64,000 bases of DNA, from NCBI GenBank assembly GCA_007695365.1, contig REDV01000078.1:43562-107561 (forward strand). The letters are read 5' to 3'. The stretch comes from Cryomorphaceae bacterium. GTDB lineage: Bacteria; Bacteroidota; Bacteroidia; Flavobacteriales_D; SKUL01. Made by a program: the position numbers and the translations under genes. Below, one piece after another: positions 13,102-23,043 of the stretch. How positions within the stretch are numbered: position 1 is the stretch's first letter; every line of letters starts with the position of its first letter. The notes beneath the pieces were generated by a model. That model saw only the letters and a list, made by a program, of their open reading frames with translations. It made no database searches and had not been told where the DNA came from.

Positions 13102-14604
13102 ATGCACAAACTTTTTCTGACACCTGCACTTCTTCTTGCATTCCCGCTGTTCGCGCAATACACCGAGCCAGTCGATAGTGCCGAAACACCTGCTTTAGAA
13201 ATCGCTCCGGACGATCCGTTTCTGGAGCGAATAGATGCTCAGTGGCAATCCATAGCACATCAGGCGTGGTTTGTACACAGTGACACGGCGTGCTTGAATA
13301 TCTACGGTTACGAACCTTCTGTGGTGCCAAAAGTATCGGACGACGAAATGCGTGAGCGCGTGAGGCAAATGGATGAGGAAACCATCATGGAGATGCGCTA
13401 TGACGGGCACATCCGCGGCTTTATTGAGCTTTATGTGTCCAAAAAGCGCGAGTTGTCGTCAAGGGTTTTGGGTCTGTCGGAACTCTACTATCCGATGATT
13501 GAGGAAATGCTCGATCGCTTTGACATTCCGCAGGAAATGAAACACCTTGCCGTTGTTGAATCTGCGCTCAACCCTACCGCACGCTCGCGTGCCGGGGCCA
13601 AAGGTTTGTGGCAATTCATGTATGGTACCGGTAAGATGTTCGATTTGAAGGTGAATTCATTTGAAGATGACCGCTTCGACCCATTGCAAAGTACCGTTGC
13701 CGCCTGCCGCTACCTTCGCCATCTTTATGGTCTGTACGGAGATTGGAATCTTGTGCTGGCAGCCTACAATTCAGGTCCGGGAAACGTGAACAAAGCCATA
13801 CGTCGCTCAGGAGGTAAGCGCGATTACTGGGCCATACGCAACTACTTACCCAGAGAAACACGGGGTTATGTGCCTGCATTCATCGCGGTAAATTACATGA
13901 TGACCTACCACCAGGAGCACAACCTGTACCCCCTCTACAATGCCTGTGCATACTATGAAACTGACACCGTGCACGTGCGTCAGCGTCTCACCTTCGATCA
14001 GGTTTCGGCTTACACCAACGTGGATGCTACATTGATAGCCTCTCTCAACCCCATGTACCTGCGTTTTGTCATTCCTGCTCAGCCCGATGCACCCAAAGTC
14101 TTGCGTTTGCCTTCAGAAGCAATCGGTGTGTTTCTTGCCAACGAAGACAGCATTTACCATCACCAACCCGAACCCACCACTCCGATGCTCGCACAGGAGG
14201 TTACCGAGTACCACCGGGTGCGCAGCGGTGAGTTTCTGGGCTCAATAGCCAACCGCTACGGAGTGCGGGTTAATGAACTAATGGAGTGGAATGGATTGCG
14301 AAACACCAACATTTACCCCGGTCAGAACCTTGTGGTACACCGTACGGTATCTCCGGCTGGTGTCGCCAGCACCACAGGCAGCACACCCACTGTAACCCAA
14401 CAAACCCAAAAACCCGCTCAGCCGGCCGTTGTTACCGACGAGGGCGCTTATCGCTACCACGTAGTACGGAGCGGTGATACACTGTGGGACATCGCCAAAC
14501 TGTACGATGGGGTTACCGTAAATCAGCTGAAGCAATTAAACAGCGGACTGAACTTTAATCGTCTCAAGCCCGGACAAAAAATCAAGATTGGTCAAGCTGG
14601 TTAA
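13102..14604 (+). CDS. Lytic murein transglycosylase (SLT domain) with two C-terminal LysM domains (MltD-like)
   Basis: Signal peptide present. SLT catalytic region AVVESALNPTARSRAGAKGLWQFM. Two LysM repeats: YHRVRSGEFLGSIANRYGV... and YHVVRSGDTLWDIAKLYDGV... Confidence 0.9.
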   Translation: MHKLFLTPALLLAFPLFAQYTEPVDSAETPALEIAPDDPFLERIDAQWQSIAHQAWFVHSDTACLNIYGYEPSVVPKVSDDEMRERVRQMDEETIMEMRYDGHIRGFIELYVSKKRELSSRVLGLSELYYPMIEEMLDRFDIPQEMKHLAVVESALNPTARSRAGAKGLWQFMYGTGKMFDLKVNSFEDDRFDPLQSTVAACRYLRHLYGLYGDWNLVLAAYNSGPGNVNKAIRRSGGKRDYWAIRNYLPRETRGYVPAFIAVNYMMTYHQEHNLYPLYNACAYYETDTVHVRQRLTFDQVSAYTNVDATLIASLNPMYLRFVIPAQPDAPKVLRLPSEAIGVFLANEDSIYHHQPEPTTPMLAQEVTEYHRVRSGEFLGSIANRYGVRVNELMEWNGLRNTNIYPGQNLVVHRTVSPAGVASTTGSTPTVTQQTQKPAQPAVVTDEGAYRYHVVRSGDTLWDIAKLYDGVTVNQLKQLNSGLNFNRLKPGQKIKIGQAG

Positions 14605-15628
14605 ATACTTTGCAGTCCTATTGGCTGCCGTTGTTATGGTCTCCTGCGATGAAGATGCATCGCATGTGCTGCCCAGATATTCCGGTGCTCCGGGCGAATT
14701 GCTGGTAATTATACCAGATGCGCTTTATGAGTCGCGCCCGGGAGATATCCTCTACGACCACTTTGCCGCATACCAGGCTATGCTACCTCAGGCCGAGCCC
14801 TATTTCAACCTGGTGCACCTCAGCCCGGAAAAAGTAAACAACATAACACGACAGCACCGCAATCTGCTGTTTGTAAACATCAAGCCCGAATCAGAAGAAA
14901 CCCCAAGGGTGGAGGCCCTTCGAAACAAATGGGCGTCCGAACAACTCGTGGTGAATGTCTATGCGCCGTCCATTGATGCATTCGATTCACTGATGGCCGA
15001 TAACGGGCCGGCTTTACTCGAAAAGTTCAACGAGTACGAGCGCAAAAGGCTGAAAGGGAATTTTGCTTTCCGCAAGAACCACAACATTGCCGATGAACTT
15101 CGTATTCAAGAAGCCCTGAGCATTACCGTGCCTCGTGATTGCAGCATTGCCCGACAGGAAAAGAATTTTACGTGGATTGAGCGCAAACGCGAAAAACCTT
15201 CGGGCGGCTCATTACACGATGTACTGCAAGGTGTATTGGTCTATCATTATCCATACACGGCCGATACCTCTTTCACCGCGGGTCATATACTTGCTGTGCG
15301 CGACTCCGTGTTGAGGCGTTACGTTCCCGGATCCGTTGAGGGCTCGTACATGACCACCGAATACCTTGTAGAACCTGCATATCGGGTGGTTGAGCACAAC
15401 GGAGCATACGCCGTTGAAATGCGTGGATTGTGGAAAGTAGCGCTGGGAGCCCCTATGGGAGGCCCTTTCATCAGCTTAACAGTGCACGACGAGCAGCGCG
15501 GAAGAATTGTAACCGCCGAGGGATTTGTCTTTGCTCCAAAATTCAGCAAACGTGAGTACCTGCGCGAAGTAGAGGCCATGATTTACAGTATCGAGTGGCC
15601 CGACGTTGAAGACTCTGAAAAAAGCTGA
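14588..15628 (+). CDS. DUF4837-family lipoprotein
   Basis: TTG start overlaps the MltD-like stop by 17 nt. Lipobox AVVMVSC. The family call is from recalled similarity (LPRYSGAPGELLVI, LPQAEPYFNLVH) and was not searched. Confidence 0.65.
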   Translation: MVKLVKYFAVLLAAVVMVSCDEDASHVLPRYSGAPGELLVIIPDALYESRPGDILYDHFAAYQAMLPQAEPYFNLVHLSPEKVNNITRQHRNLLFVNIKPESEETPRVEALRNKWASEQLVVNVYAPSIDAFDSLMADNGPALLEKFNEYERKRLKGNFAFRKNHNIADELRIQEALSITVPRDCSIARQEKNFTWIERKREKPSGGSLHDVLQGVLVYHYPYTADTSFTAGHILAVRDSVLRRYVPGSVEGSYMTTEYLVEPAYRVVEHNGAYAVEMRGLWKVALGAPMGGPFISLTVHDEQRGRIVTAEGFVFAPKFSKREYLREVEAMIYSIEWPDVEDSEKS

Positions 15629-15640
15629 TTTAAGGTCTGC

Positions 15641-15657
15641 GGAAATGACCGTCATTC
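15641..15657. repeat. Abutted element tips (GGAAATGAC-C-GTCATTC)
   Basis: Right-tip-like and left-tip-like sequences are separated by 1 nt. They form a 13-nt palindrome 16 nt after the DUF4837 stop. Confidence 0.5.
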
Positions 15658-15712
15658 ATTTGAGGAAACAAAGTCTGTAATGGGACGAAAAAACCCGATG
15701 CATCCCCTTAGT

Positions 15713-15862
15713 GTCATTTCGACCGGAACGCCGAGGAACGAGGCGTGAAGTAGCCTGCCCCGAAGAATTTCGGGGGAGAAATCTCATTCAGTTCACACTT
15801 TGATCTCATAATAGATTTCTCCGCTACACAGCTCCTGCCGTCGCTGCTTCGGTCGAAATGAC
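15713..15862. repeat. Nested-palindrome element, copy A (150 bp, REPIN/MITE-like)
   Basis: Perfect 13-bp terminal inverted repeats GTCATTTCGACCG / CGGTCGAAATGAC. Inner inverted repeat GAGAAATCT / AGATTTCTC. 23-bp core GAGAAATCTCATTCAGTTCACAC. 18-nt hairpin module at 15758-15775. Confidence 0.85.
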
Positions 15863-15907
15863 AAAACACTCATAACCTGAAATAAGAACCCCCAATCACA
15901 CCCCTTT

Positions 15908-16047
15908 GTCATTTCGACCGGAGTGCTGAGGTACGAAGCACGCAGTGGAGAAATCTCATTCAGTTCACACGTCGTCTCCCTAGAGATTTCTCCCCCCGAA
16001 GAATTTCGGGGCGCAGCTCCTGTTGTCGCTGCTTCGGTCGAAATGAC
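15908..16047. repeat. Nested-palindrome element, copy B (140 bp)
   Basis: Same 13-bp terminal inverted repeats and an identical 23-bp core (15948-15970). Inner 11-bp inverted repeat GGAGAAATCTC / GAGATTTCTCC. Identical 18-nt hairpin module, now at 15994-16011 on the other side of the inner stem. Confidence 0.85.
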
Positions 16048-16095
16048 AAAACGCCAATAATCAAAACAAAAAAGCAATCACACCTTGAACACGAC

Positions 16096-16127
16096 AATCA
16101 GAGCATCACCCGGCTGCGACTCTGATT
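16096..16127. repeat. Isolated hairpin AATCAGAG-N16-CTCTGATT
   Basis: Perfect 8-bp stem with a 16-nt loop. No flanking T-run on either strand. Confidence 0.5.
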
Positions 16128-16153
16128 GATGATAACCGCTACGATTCAGCATA

Positions 16154-16175
16154 GACCCTGAAAGGGTCAAATGTC
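16154..16175. repeat. 22-nt hairpin repeat, copy 1 (GACCCTGAAAGGGTCAAATGTC)
   Basis: 6-bp stem GACCCT/AGGGTC with loop GAA. Related copy 51 nt downstream. Confidence 0.75.
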
Positions 16176-16204
16176 TGAAGAGAAAGCAACGAAGATAGAA
16201 GTGC

Positions 16205-16226
16205 GACCCCGAAGGGGTCGAATGTC
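16205..16226. repeat. 22-nt hairpin repeat, copy 2 (GACCCCGAAGGGGTCGAATGTC)
   Basis: 6-bp stem GACCCC/GGGGTC with loop GAA. The loop-closing pair is C-G here and T-A in copy 1. Confidence 0.75.
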
Positions 16227-16588
16227 CACCGAAACATGCAATAACACTATATTTCAATCCCTTATGATTTTAAATTAGGGTGCATCTCAAACGCAGACGC
16301 CTGAAAGAGACGCTTAGCACAACTCGTCAAACCCCAATTACCGAAGTAACCTACGCACACGCTAAGCCAAGCGCATTTCATGAAATCGCTACCCAACTCG
16401 AGATCGCTATCCAGTAATCATAGTAACCGCTGGATGACTTTCATTGATATAAGTCTGATCTATTTGACGTTAAGTGGTGGGTGAAAAACCCACCCCAACC
16501 CCGACTTTCAACATCAAGGTCTTGTGAAACCCGCGTTTGTCGGGGCCACCCCTCCGGTGGAGGAGACAAGGCCTCCGTTTCAATTTTG

Positions 16589-16613
16589 GGATTTCTCGCT
16601 CGTAATGACAAAA
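16589..16613. repeat. Degenerate right end of the same element family
   Basis: GGATTTCTCGCTCGTAATGACAAAA compared with AGATTTCTCC...GGTCGAAATGACAAAA. Confidence 0.45.
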
Positions 16614-16624
16614 TGCTACTAATC

Positions 16625-16667
16625 AGAAATAAAAGCTCAGGTCAGCGTAGCGTCTCGCTACACTGAC
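16625..16667 (-). terminator. Strong hairpin plus U-tract oriented for minus-strand transcripts
   Basis: 12-bp stem 16641-16652 with 16656-16667 and a 3-nt loop. The single non-Watson-Crick position is C.A on the plus strand but G.U on the minus-strand RNA. On the minus strand it is followed by CTGAGCTTTTATTTCTG. Confidence 0.5.
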
Positions 16668-16754
16668 ATCTTCAAGGCGTCCCCGCCTGCTCTTTTGATT
16701 CCGATTGTAAGCCGCGAGCATCCGCACCAAATCCTTTCCAACCCCACTCCTTTT

Positions 16755-16793
16755 GTCATTTCGGCCGGAGTGCTGCGGAACGAAACGCTGAGG
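16755..16793. repeat. Solo left end of the same element family
   Basis: GTCATTTCGGCCGGAGTGCTGCGGAACGAAACGCTGAGG aligns with the left arm of copy B. No right end follows. Lies ~45 nt from the stop of the 128-aa gene. Confidence 0.65.
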
Positions 16794-16836
16794 ACATCAA
16801 GACTCAACACTTACGTCGTTTTTCAGCGAACCTGAT

Positions 16837-17223
16837 TTAAACCGGAAAGGACATCAGCCACTCCAAGGCATCCTCGCGGTTCTTAAAGAGCTGCGTGGGG
16901 CGATTGGGCTTGTTGAAGCGAATGAAGAAATTGGCAGTCATTTCGTGCGAGTAACTCTGCACCACAACCGCATCTGCTACTATAGCATCGGTTGACCCGG
17001 CTGAAGACGCATAATTTCGGGCGTCCTGACTGAGAGAGGCCTTTTCTCCGGCGGTAACAAGCAAACGAAATTTCTGCCCATTGGCTTCGCTGTTGATGGT
17101 CTCAAAAATTCGTTTCACCTCCTCTAGTTCAACCACCTGACCTTCTTTCATGTGGAGATGAAGAATGTTGTCGGGTTGAAAGGTCAATGTTGACTTACCT
17201 AAATCGAAAGTTTTGTCTGACAT
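16837..17223 (-). CDS. Hypothetical protein (128 aa), possibly SpoIIAA/STAS-like fold
   Basis: ATG start with a -7 box 31 nt upstream. No motif that I can name with certainty. Confidence 0.55.
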   Translation of the reverse strand: MSDKTFDLGKSTLTFQPDNILHLHMKEGQVVELEEVKRIFETINSEANGQKFRLLVTAGEKASLSQDARNYASSAGSTDAIVADAVVVQSYSHEMTANFFIRFNKPNRPTQLFKNREDALEWLMSFPV

Positions 17224-21918: not shown

Positions 21919-23043
21919 TTGAAAACCGGCACTGATTTCTGGAAGATAGCACTGAGCCTCATTGAAGGCATCGGACCGGCCACGGCTCGTAAGCTTGTTC
22001 GCGCCTTTGGCTCTCCCGAAAAGGTGTTTGAAGCACCGGTTGGAGCACTCCGCAAAATACCTGGGGTTCACGAACAGGTGGTGAATCAAATTCTATCCGG
22101 CACTTGCCTGCCAGAAGCTGAGCGCGAGGCTGGTTTCGTGAAAGAACACAATGTACGCGTACAACTGGCCAGCGATGATGATTACCCGCTGCGTCTTCGT
22201 CAATGCCCCGACGCTCCTGTTATCCTGTACACACGCGGCAATTTCAACCCTGACTCAGGGCGGGTGCTGGCTGTAGTAGGAACGAGGCAGGCCACACCCC
22301 ACGGAAAAGCGGCTTGCGAACGGATTATCGAATCGTTGAGCCAGGAATCTGTGCTCATCGTGAGCGGTATGGCCTACGGTGTGGATTTTTGTGCCCATCA
22401 GGCAGCTCTTCGCTACGGCTTACCAACCGCGGCTGTTTTTGCGCACGGCCTGGACACCGTGTATCCCTCGGTGCACCGGAAAACTGCCAACCAAATGCTC
22501 GAAAACGGTGGCTGGGTGAGCGAATTCAGAAGCATGACCGCCCTTGACCGCCACTATTTTCCGCGCAGAAACCGAATTGTTGCCGGAATGTGCGACGGAG
22601 TATTGGTGATTGAATCCGACAAAAAAGGTGGCTCACTCATCACCGCCGATATTGCCAACTCATACAGCCGGGAGGTGATGGCGCTTCCCGGAAGGGCAGA
22701 CGACATTCGCTCAGCCGGTTGCAATTGGCTGATTAAAACGCACCGCGCAGCACTGGTTGAATCCGGCGAAGACGTATTGCGCCATATGGGCTGGGAACGC
22801 CGCGAAGCCGAACCCGCTCCGGTTCAGCTATCGGTTTTTCCGAGCTTATCGGAAGATGAATTGGAACTGGCCCGGTGTCTTCAGCAGTCGGGACCGGTAT
22901 CCATTGATGCATTGGCAGACCTTTCGGGCAAACCCATGCAGGATGTGTCACATCTGCTTCTCAACCTCGAAATGGAAGGTGTTGTAAAAGCCATGCCCGG
23001 CAAGCGTTACAGCCTGAAAAAGCCGCTGGCGAGCTTCGGCTAG
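21919..23043 (+). CDS. dprA: DNA-processing protein DprA (Smf)
   Basis: TTG start. Rossmann-like core AVVGTRQATPHG...SGMAYGVDFCAHQAAL. C-terminal winged-helix tail. Confidence 0.9.
   Translation: MKTGTDFWKIALSLIEGIGPATARKLVRAFGSPEKVFEAPVGALRKIPGVHEQVVNQILSGTCLPEAEREAGFVKEHNVRVQLASDDDYPLRLRQCPDAPVILYTRGNFNPDSGRVLAVVGTRQATPHGKAACERIIESLSQESVLIVSGMAYGVDFCAHQAALRYGLPTAAVFAHGLDTVYPSVHRKTANQMLENGGWVSEFRSMTALDRHYFPRRNRIVAGMCDGVLVIESDKKGGSLITADIANSYSREVMALPGRADDIRSAGCNWLIKTHRAALVESGEDVLRHMGWERREAEPAPVQLSVFPSLSEDELELARCLQQSGPVSIDALADLSGKPMQDVSHLLLNLEMEGVVKAMPGKRYSLKKPLASFG

Follow-up and report, generated by a model that had tools for sequence, protein, structure and literature searches.

A gene-free island in an uncultured Bacteroidota genome as a probable cluster of Ssn-related, TGTC-tagged hairpin repeats

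The 1,208-bp gene-free island treated here occupies positions 15629-16836 of a 64,000-nucleotide stretch of Cryomorphaceae bacterium DNA (contig REDV01000078.1 of assembly GCA_007695365.1; the whole stretch is called the window), and its closest described relatives are short hairpin repeats that were catalogued in 2013 and tied to an enzyme in 2025. Di Nocera et al. (2013, BMC Genomics 14:522; PMC3733652) reported "CGTC-tagged" repetitive extragenic palindromes (REPs), whose tag is often TGTC, with stems of 8-9 bp that start with the pairs A-T and T-A, loops of 4-5 nt and a short unpaired tail. These repeats occur in Bacteroidetes among other phyla, most of them form "HH dimers", whose tags lie outside and whose spacers, of 20-100 bp, often have complementary ends, and no transposase was found with them. 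The CGTC-1 repeat of Neisseria is dRS3 (PMC3733652), which forms the core of the Neisseria NTS, CGTCATTCCCGCGMAVGCGGGAATCYRG (PMC11893778). Chenal et al. (2025, Nat Commun 16:2388; PMC11893778) described NTS and its relatives as Ssn-related motifs (SRM), hairpins that bracket ssnA, the gene of a 94-aa single-domain GIY-YIG nuclease. SsnA was found to bind the hairpin only as single-stranded DNA (ssDNA) and on one strand only, not as double-stranded DNA, as RNA or on the opposite strand, and to cut a few nucleotides 5' of GTC; cutting depends most on the three bases 5' of the palindrome, and binding on the C just 3' of it. In N. meningitidis, SsnA cuts incoming transforming ssDNA near NTS and lowers transformation and recombination around the repeats, and the question of whether the repeats themselves are mobile was raised and left open (PMC11893778). 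No work on Ssn repeats later than the 2025 paper was found, and searches of the literature with arm sequence strings returned primers only. The initial annotation of the window knew of no formal description of the family, which these two papers provide. We propose, with a probability of roughly three in four, that the island is a cluster of Ssn-related hairpin repeats (SRM/NTS-like, of the CGTC/TGTC-tagged REP superfamily) whose arms are predicted sites of a cognate Ssn nuclease; what this locus adds to the catalogued class is a stem and loop variant in an uncultured Bacteroidota lineage.

The island lies between the stop codons of a convergent gene pair, the DUF4837 gene (14588-15628, plus strand) and a 128-aa DUF7793 gene (16837-17223, minus strand), and is the longest stretch of the 64 kb without a long open reading frame (ORF); the borders and the gene-free state first annotated were borne out. 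It holds two full elements at the coordinates originally given, dimer 1 at 15713-15862 and dimer 2 at 15908-16047, which share one architecture: two inverted arms with TGTC tags outside, separated by a spacer of 30 nt (15784-15813) in dimer 1 and of 29 nt (15956-15984) in dimer 2. Both elements have the perfect 13-nt ends GTCATTTCGACCG and CGGTCGAAATGAC. The identical core that they share, annotated as 23 bp, was found to be 24 nt long (15775-15798 and 15947-15970; 0 expected in shuffles), the inner inverted repeats, put at 9-11 bp, measure 10-11 nt at 100% (I21, I25), and the near-identical right arms agree at 94.9% over 39 nt. Two profiles, one for the tip and one for the inner motif, were built solely from other organisms' copies and run on the 64 kb. 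The tip profile found five tips (E 5.5e-5 to 0.04, at 15712, 15863, 15907, 16048 and 16754), all of them in the island and all reading TGTCATTTCG, and the two best matches of the inner-motif profile also fell in the island, which holds every copy of the arm in the 64 kb. The exact heptamer GTCATTT/AAATGAC, estimated beforehand at about seven occurrences, is present six times in the island, together with two one-mismatch variants, and 15 times in the whole window. Each dimer folds as ssDNA, on either strand, into the multi-branched hairpin that had been predicted (-35.2 and -36.0 kcal/mol for the two strands of dimer 1, z -5.7 and -5.9; -36.4 and -35.9 kcal/mol for those of dimer 2, z -6.3 and -6.5), and the reading of the island as nested palindromes in a REP-doublet-like layout, clustered between convergent 3' ends, held as well.

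Comparison across genomes points to the single arm as the functional unit. One genome per species was scanned with the 15-mer GTCATTTCGRCCGGA, which gave at least 120 loci; about half of the 120 listed are chance matches, the 15-mer being too short, and complete ATTTC arms are present in the other 58 loci. The arm-bearing loci come from Acidobacteriota, Alphaproteobacteria, Bacteroidota, Planctomycetota, Patescibacteria, Clostridia, Coriobacteriales and other groups. The anatomy, taken from 123 unique arms, is an unpaired (T)GTC, the half-stem ATTTC-GA-CC, a loop, the half-stem GG-AG-GAAAT and an unpaired C, in short TGTC-ATTTCG...GAGAAATC. In the middle of the stem lies a tandem G.A, in which G and A always face A and G (98 unique arms), and in 92 of the 98 a base pair links tip position 11 to the base 5' of GAGAAAT (C-G in 80, G-C in 10 and A-T in 2; pairs were counted by script on unique arms from other genomes, as the MAFFT alignment misplaced gaps in short arms). 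The outer stem of the arm is real. The shortest arms have 25 nt, GTCATTTCGACC-GGA-GGGAGAAATC, i.e. a 3-nt loop, and in longer arms the loop reaches 60 nt or more; a perfect stem of at least 5 bp was present in 26 of 61 loop inserts of relatives, with 20 different stem sequences. In the window, all four dimer arms and a solo arm begin with TGTC followed by ATTTCG, the four dimer arms end with GGAGAAAT and C, and the loops, of about 24-50 nt, hold one or two nested hairpins. ATTTC..GAAAT occurs within each of the four dimer arms and is the minimum-energy fold in three, the left arm of dimer 1 folding differently.

The window elements are tags-outside dimers of TGTC-tagged units, which is the common form of the family: 46 of 49 convergent pairs in the listed genome loci measure 50-250 bp, too short for an ssn gene. 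Heterodimers make up 26 of these 49 pairs (loci L021, L040, L046, L059, L107 and L120 among others); their two arms have different stem 5-mers, for instance ATTTC and ATCTC, and each 5-mer pairs only within its own arm. Heterodimers of self-complementary arms confirm that the arm, and not the pair of ends, is the unit. The 13-bp ends are present as annotated, and rather than a terminal inverted repeat each is the 5' half of a hairpin in its own arm; the "identical core" combines the left arm's 3' half with the first part of the spacer. Behind some elements, bare tips or half arms follow one another in tandem at periods of 25-75 nt (L105, to the right of its ssn unit, and L005, L025/L113, L118, L169 and L207), and identity to the consensus drops along such a trail.

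The left arm of dimer 1 (15713-15783, plus strand) was located by a generic arm scan, reads GTC-ATTTCGACC...GGAGAAAT-C (tip profile E 1.8e-4) and carries the loop hairpin CGCC-GAGGAACGA-GGCG at 15729-15745. Its partner on the minus strand (15814-15862; tip profile E 1.1e-4, inner-motif profile E 0.013) has the loop hairpin CAGC..GCTG at 15829-15846 and adopts the arm hairpin as its minimum-energy fold. The left arm of dimer 2 (15908-15955, plus strand; tip profile E 5.5e-5, inner motif E 0.0067) contains the loop hairpin GTGCT-GAGGTACGA-AGCAC at 15923-15941, whose stem shows compensatory differences from the stem in dimer 1. The right arm of dimer 2 (15985-16047, minus strand; fold z -3.0) has its CAGC..GCTG loop hairpin at 16014-16031 and a mini hairpin at 15994-16011. 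This mini hairpin of 18 nt, CCCCGAAGAATTTCGGGG, is identical at 15758-15775 in the left arm of dimer 1. It stands just 5' of GGAGAAATC, at the equivalent position in oppositely oriented arms, and keeps the same top-strand sequence including the loop GAAT, so that it is not a palindromic copy.

The likely partner of the arms emerges from related loci. Between ATTTC-type arms of L102, L105 and L095 lies a 97-103-aa ORF encoding a single-domain GIY-YIG protein (PF01541), and a GIY-YIG gene is bracketed by such arms in inverted orientation in L102, L105, L095, L143, L149 and L170. The L095 gene, from Mucilaginibacter lappiensis, has a left arm of the ATTTC type, with ATTTC-type dimers to either side. 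By similarity to that protein 80 metagenome loci (L134-L213) were fetched, which offer 160 flanks of Ssn-like genes. GTCAY stands in the expected orientation in 147 of the 160, and GTC with a 5-mer, followed within 90 nt by the reverse complement of the 5-mer and C, in 104. Thirteen stem 5-mers were recorded next to Ssn-like genes, ATTCC, ATCCC, ATTCT, ATCCT, ATGCT, ATTTC and ATTGC among them, and the stems covary: 126 hairpins were found versus 6.4 when the 5-mers were swapped among tips. GTC is by far the commonest triplet before a self-complementary 5-mer in the flanks of the 80 genes (138 of 563; the next triplet has 34), and neither the C after the palindrome (124 of 138) nor the T before GTC (125 of 138) was imposed by the search. 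The connection with the characterised system runs through viral contigs: in L250, L216 and L308 the canonical NTS CGTCATTCCCGCGAAGGCGGGAATCCAG flanks the gene in the order NTS-gene-NTS, and the encoded proteins are 47-54% identical to those of L102 and L105 (E 1e-22 to 1e-28). Canonical NTS, GTCATTCCCGCGNNNGCGGGAATC, was found in at least 120 loci of IMG/VR viral contigs (L214-L333), some with up to 13 copies; ATTTC-type arms are rare in such contigs (3 loci), and the 24-nt core of the window had no match in them. In the PDB the GIY-YIG protein matched only the UPF0213 GIY-YIG proteins 1ZG2 (E 4.5e-11) and 1YWL (E 1.6e-9), no Ssn structure being found there, and no NCBIfam match exceeded the cutoffs. 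Since the superfamily is tied to Ssn GIY-YIG nucleases, its partner enzyme is not the RAYT (REP-associated tyrosine transposase) or IS200/IS605-type tyrosine transposase that had been suspected. In L143 (about 607-640) and L151 (about 1460-1510) a gap of 2-3 nt separates the end of the upstream arm's 3' half, GGAGAAATC or GAAGGACC, from the start codon ATG of the Ssn-like ORF. At this distance its purine-rich part could double as a Shine-Dalgarno sequence, and judging from this arrangement the hairpin could then control translation of the nuclease in these two loci.

The favoured mechanism is drawn from homology and from the arm grammar. The unit would be one arm, in which (T)GTC and C stay unpaired on either side of the stem formed by ATTTC-GA-CC and GG-AG-GAAAT, and whose loop can hold extra hairpins; the 140-150-bp elements would be two such arms in inverted orientation with the tags outside, i.e. 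the layout of an SRM-ssn-SRM unit minus the gene. The arms of the window may be substrates of a cognate Ssn encoded elsewhere in the genome, in which case a tags-outside dimer would receive two cuts, just outside each end and on opposite strands. A side effect as a transcription barrier between the convergent genes is possible.

Several observations weigh against the assignment to the Ssn-related repeats. The published SRM pattern, HGTCWYN(0-2)YYVSBRHN(0-5)WNVSBRGN(0-2)RNCYNB, has 0 hits in the window: the arms have the unpaired GTC, the one-unit hairpin and the 3' C of an SRM and do not match the pattern. This pattern, an operational search pattern and not a biochemical definition, finds a canonical NTS test sequence, gives 0 hits in a short ATTTC arm and gives 0 hits in the 191,660 bases around the 80 Ssn-like genes. 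Loops are 24-50 nt long here versus 3-5 nt in the characterised NTS and CGTC REPs; the Ssn binding that has been characterised concerns short-loop hairpins, and the expanded hairpins of the window would be assigned to it by grammar. A bracketed Ssn gene is found for the family and not inside the window, where tblastn detected no ssn gene or remnant in the 64 kb and a profile of the 80 proteins gave a best E of at least 8, so that the cognate enzyme of this organism is assumed, not seen. As to folding, three arms lack the mini hairpin: two of them form the arm hairpin with a stability that does not exceed that of shuffles (right arm of dimer 1, z -0.2; left arm of dimer 2, z -0.7), the third, the solo arm, does not form it at all (z -0.6), and a fold of the whole dimer, tip with tip and inner motif with inner motif, would compete with the arm hairpin. 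A decayed ssn gene in 16050-16590 was looked for separately, by tblastn and with the profile of 80 proteins with filters off, and ruled out.

The history of the locus can be read in part from its borders and its repeats. Comparison with relatives, which the initial annotation had proposed, showed that the closest one, with a DUF4837 protein 89% identical at the amino-acid level, has an empty site. In this sister lineage, which is present in SRR32456851 and neighbouring runs and is represented by six contigs from different samples, the five contigs that cover both genes have the same gene order and stop codons 1 nt apart (GAGAGCTGATTTACACCGG), and the sixth (L126) stops shortly past the DUF4837 gene. 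In a more distant relative (64%) the spacer measures 95 bp and contains no arms. No arms were found in about 100 kb of relatives' contigs. In the window, the island is bounded by a direct repeat of 9-12 bp that duplicates the empty-site sequence GAGCTGATTTAC and preserves both stop codons: the left copy, AAGCTGATTTAA (15622-15633; family D15), contains the TGA stop of the DUF4837 gene, and the right copy, AACCTGATTTAA (16829-16840), contains the DUF7793 stop (TTA, i.e. TAA on the minus strand). What is duplicated is the overlapping stop-codon region of the two genes, present once in the sister lineage (L122, 7030-7050). This lineage either never had the island or lost it by repeat recombination, so that insertion with a 9-12-bp duplication is assumed to have occurred at some point. 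Empty site and duplication together are the one piece of evidence bearing on repeat mobility, and they apply to the whole island, not to single elements.

Within the island, the spacer between the dimers (15863-15907, 45 nt) begins with about 27 nt, AAAACACTCATAACCTGAAATAAGA, that are conserved after all three right tips (repeat family D2; three copies at 77-79% identity, 15849-15887, 16034-16072 and 16596-16634), and a second spacer repeat, CAATCACACC (D18), occurs twice; because the D2 sequence follows each right tip, "dimer + spacer" is what repeats, at a period of 195 or 185 nt. Repetition of this type also occurs elsewhere, as a duplicated full ssn unit in L102 and as arrays in L035 and L163, and fits unequal recombination or slippage, or the re-use of fragments cut upstream of successive arms on the same strand. 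The cluster may have begun with an insertion in this lineage, after which "dimer + spacer" units were duplicated locally and some arms decayed.

A step beyond the assignment to Ssn repeats would be to regard the gene-less tags-outside dimers as non-autonomous mobile units moved in trans by Ssn, an unrecognised class of transposable elements analogous to the REP doublets (REPINs) that depend on RAYTs. We hold this extension to be tentative and doubtful on balance. If it were true, a GIY-YIG ssDNA nuclease would be an excision and insertion enzyme with a catalytic fold different from that of RAYT, the island would record an insertion followed by tandem amplification of "dimer + spacer" at Ssn cut sites, and the same mechanism would explain the tandem arrays and tip trails in many phyla.

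Among the explanations that compete with the Ssn-related assignment, an action of the elements mainly as RNA, either as a structured small RNA or as bidirectional terminators or mRNA stabilisers for the convergent genes, survives best and is nevertheless unlikely. It would account for the strong folding (z about -6), the compensatory changes in loop-hairpin stems between copies and the position directly after two stop codons. Both strands, however, fold equally well, as expected of a DNA palindrome, arms occur in both orientations and within gene-bearing units, terminator-like sites are not enriched (2 found versus 2.2 expected), and the sister lineage manages without any spacer. An Rfam 15 scan of the island (E <= 10), a check already advised in the initial annotation, gave two chance matches and no family at its gathering threshold (CRISPR-DR60, 19.7 bits against a gathering score of 45, E 3.2, at 16577-16609; mir-1954, 16.3 bits against a threshold of 99), and the scan of 18 related loci found tRNAs only. 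SsnA, moreover, does not bind the RNA form of NTS (PMC11893778).

Less probable still are conventional MITEs (miniature inverted-repeat transposable elements), that is, deletion derivatives of an insertion sequence (IS) with a DDE transposase, moved via the 13-bp terminal inverted repeats with target-site duplication. The perfection of these ends, the island-wide direct repeat of 9-12 bp with an empty site in the relative, and the flanking direct repeats of 8-11 nt in a minority of elements elsewhere (e.g. L099 and L213) are what such elements would leave. Yet neither dimer has a duplication of its own, the flanks being ...CCCTTAGT / AAAACACT... and ...CCCCTTT / AAAACGCC..., and the longest direct match in the flanks, averaged over 127 elements, is 4.68 nt, compared with 4.14 in controls. 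The different, individually self-complementary stem 5-mers of 26 of the 49 dimers mean that the two ends do not form a true inverted repeat; neither do the outer ends of the island, and the sole gene found inside such ends is the GIY-YIG gene.

A classical REPIN or bacterial interspersed mosaic element (BIME), in which REP doublets are moved by a RAYT encoded once in the genome, would present the same picture of inverted pairs of hairpin units between convergent genes, able to form a long composite hairpin. This explanation is very improbable: the gene between the arms of full-length relatives encodes a GIY-YIG nuclease and never a Y1 transposase, the tag is (T/C)GTC and not GTAG, and Di Nocera et al. 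found no RAYT with flanking CGTC-type repeats (PMC3733652). The statement in the initial annotation that the window has neither a RAYT nor another transposase is upheld, as no transposase family, Y1 included, was detected among the 53 main ORFs scanned. That an ordinary gene or a CRISPR array decayed to leave the island can be dismissed almost entirely: against the 94-aa ORF that runs through the dimers and the weak CRISPR-DR60 match stand nine island ORFs without a notable Pfam match (a decayed ordinary gene was rejected on this result), the absence of similarity to fetched sequences apart from the arms and of a regular repeat-spacer array, and a site of 1 nt in the sister lineage.

Beyond the two dimers the island contains further, more eroded parts. 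The solo left end proposed initially is a solo arm on the plus strand (16755-16798), with an intact tip GTCATTTCGGCCGGAG (tip profile E 0.041) and a loop related to that of dimer 2 (repeat D1 at 73-80%; 33 nt at 90.9% to 15905-15937); its 3' half has decayed and reads GAGGACATC where intact arms have GGAGAAATC. The degenerate right end proposed with it is marginal: a short arm without loop insert, GTCATTACGAGCGAGAAATCC (16589-16609, minus strand), with 2 mismatches and a tip profile E of 1.2, is followed by the conserved post-tip spacer of D2 (16610-16634), and the segment 16589-16634 has no stable fold of its own. The abutted tips read at 15641-15657 did not rise above chance; the doubtful remnants there, a tip-like GTCATTTCCGCAG (15637-15649, minus strand; a 2-mismatch match) abutting GTCATTCATTTGAGGAAAC (15651-15669), were not significant by the independent tip profile (E 12). 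Another small hairpin, GACCCYGAARGGGTCRAATGTC, is present in two copies, at 16154-16175 and 16205-16226, which on the minus strand read GACATTTGACCC-TTTCA-GGGTC and GACATTCGACCCC-TTCG-GGGGTCG. On that strand it is tip-like with GAC in place of GTC (GACATT...-type; ssDNA fold z -4.3); these are its only two matches in the window, with 0 expected, and it is found in none of the fetched loci. The outermost tips of the island are oriented "inside-out". Outside the arms the island resembles nothing fetched, and 16093-16588 gave no match in any fetched sequence and no protein or RNA family match.

The 94-aa ORF crosses both dimers on the minus strand (15793-16077), and none of the nine island ORFs has a meaningful match in Pfam. 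The rest of the window is housekeeping DNA of the ordinary Bacteroidota sort, in which GldH, PorP/SprF and sorting domains of type IX secretion occur. For the DUF4837 protein, the relatives that carry a name come from Flavobacteriales metagenome-assembled genomes, at about 39% identity, and the exact sequence, with its start codon guessed, has no record. The only other DNA of the same organism found was one 6.5-kb metagenome contig (L001, Logan SRR7901804), 100% identical to the window, which ends inside the island at 16534; this is the type of assembly break that repeats and hairpins cause. The dprA gene lies at 21919-23043, about 5 kb from the island, and is relevant only because the sole known role of Ssn is in transformation. 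DprA, which is widespread in bacteria, loads RecA onto incoming single-stranded DNA.

The only large non-coding island of the window thus probably belongs to a known and very widespread repeat class and would be neither a new kind of element nor an RNA gene. A simple grammar, GTC-palindrome-C, finds arms that the published SRM pattern misses, and because that pattern misses this stem variant as well as all the arms at the 80 Ssn-like genes, surveys based on it probably undercount the family. The very long loops with nested hairpins bear on site recognition by a protein of about 95 aa and on applications of Ssn enzymes as tools for ssDNA. The clean empty site, the flanking duplication and the repeated "dimer + spacer" make the island a concrete case for the question of repeat movement and the part of Ssn in it. 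On the practical side, hairpin elements of this kind break metagenome assemblies and produce spurious ORFs, which are likely to enter annotations as "hypothetical proteins" with recurring peptide motifs.

Set beside the known systems, the Ssn repeats share with IS200/IS605 elements the principle of subterminal ssDNA hairpins that are recognised and cleaved a few nucleotides away, an ssn unit being likewise a gene between hairpins; they differ in that the two ends of an IS200/IS605 element are not mutual inverted repeats and that the enzyme there is a Y1 HUH transposase, whereas we know of no strand-transfer activity of Ssn. With REPIN-RAYT systems and BIMEs the island has in common the hairpin units, the inverted doublet as the main form, the clustering between convergent genes and, for the family, a single-copy nuclease gene that stands between copies of the repeat and whose product acts on hairpins of ssDNA. 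The difference lies in the enzyme, an HUH tyrosine transposase versus a GIY-YIG nuclease, and in the tag, GTAG versus (C/T)GTC. Population data support the view that RAYT replicates REPINs, and to our knowledge nothing comparable exists for SRM dimers. The dRS3 repeats and the mosaic elements of Neisseria resemble the island in being intergenic arrays made of short oriented hairpin repeats in alternation with other repeat units of 50-150 bp; they belong to a different phylum and have a different stem sequence, the arrays of Neisseria are much larger and surround genes for surface proteins, and dRS3 also serves as a phage attachment site, a role that nothing suggests for the island arms. With the CGTC/TGTC-tagged REP superfamily the window arms share the unpaired TGTC tag, a stem of nine positions (two of them G.A) whose first pairs are A-T and T-A, the unpaired tail, and tags-outside dimers with spacers of 30 and 29 nt that have complementary ends; the loops exceed the 4-5 nt of that definition, and the ATTTC/GAAAT stem was likened to the superfamily by its general description, not to its four families individually. 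In the comparison with NTS and the SRM, the window stem ATTTC with its tandem G.A, the expanded loops, the gene-less dimers as the only form present and the Bacteroidota lineage, a phylum not named in the text of PMC11893778, mark the differences. Common to both are the unpaired GTC, a palindrome starting with AT and an unpaired C (CGTC-ATTCCCGC..GCGGGAAT-C in NTS, TGTC-ATTTCGACC..GGAGAAAT-C in the window), the inverted arms that in relatives bracket a GIY-YIG gene of about 95 aa, and the intergenic, clustered occurrence of the repeats.

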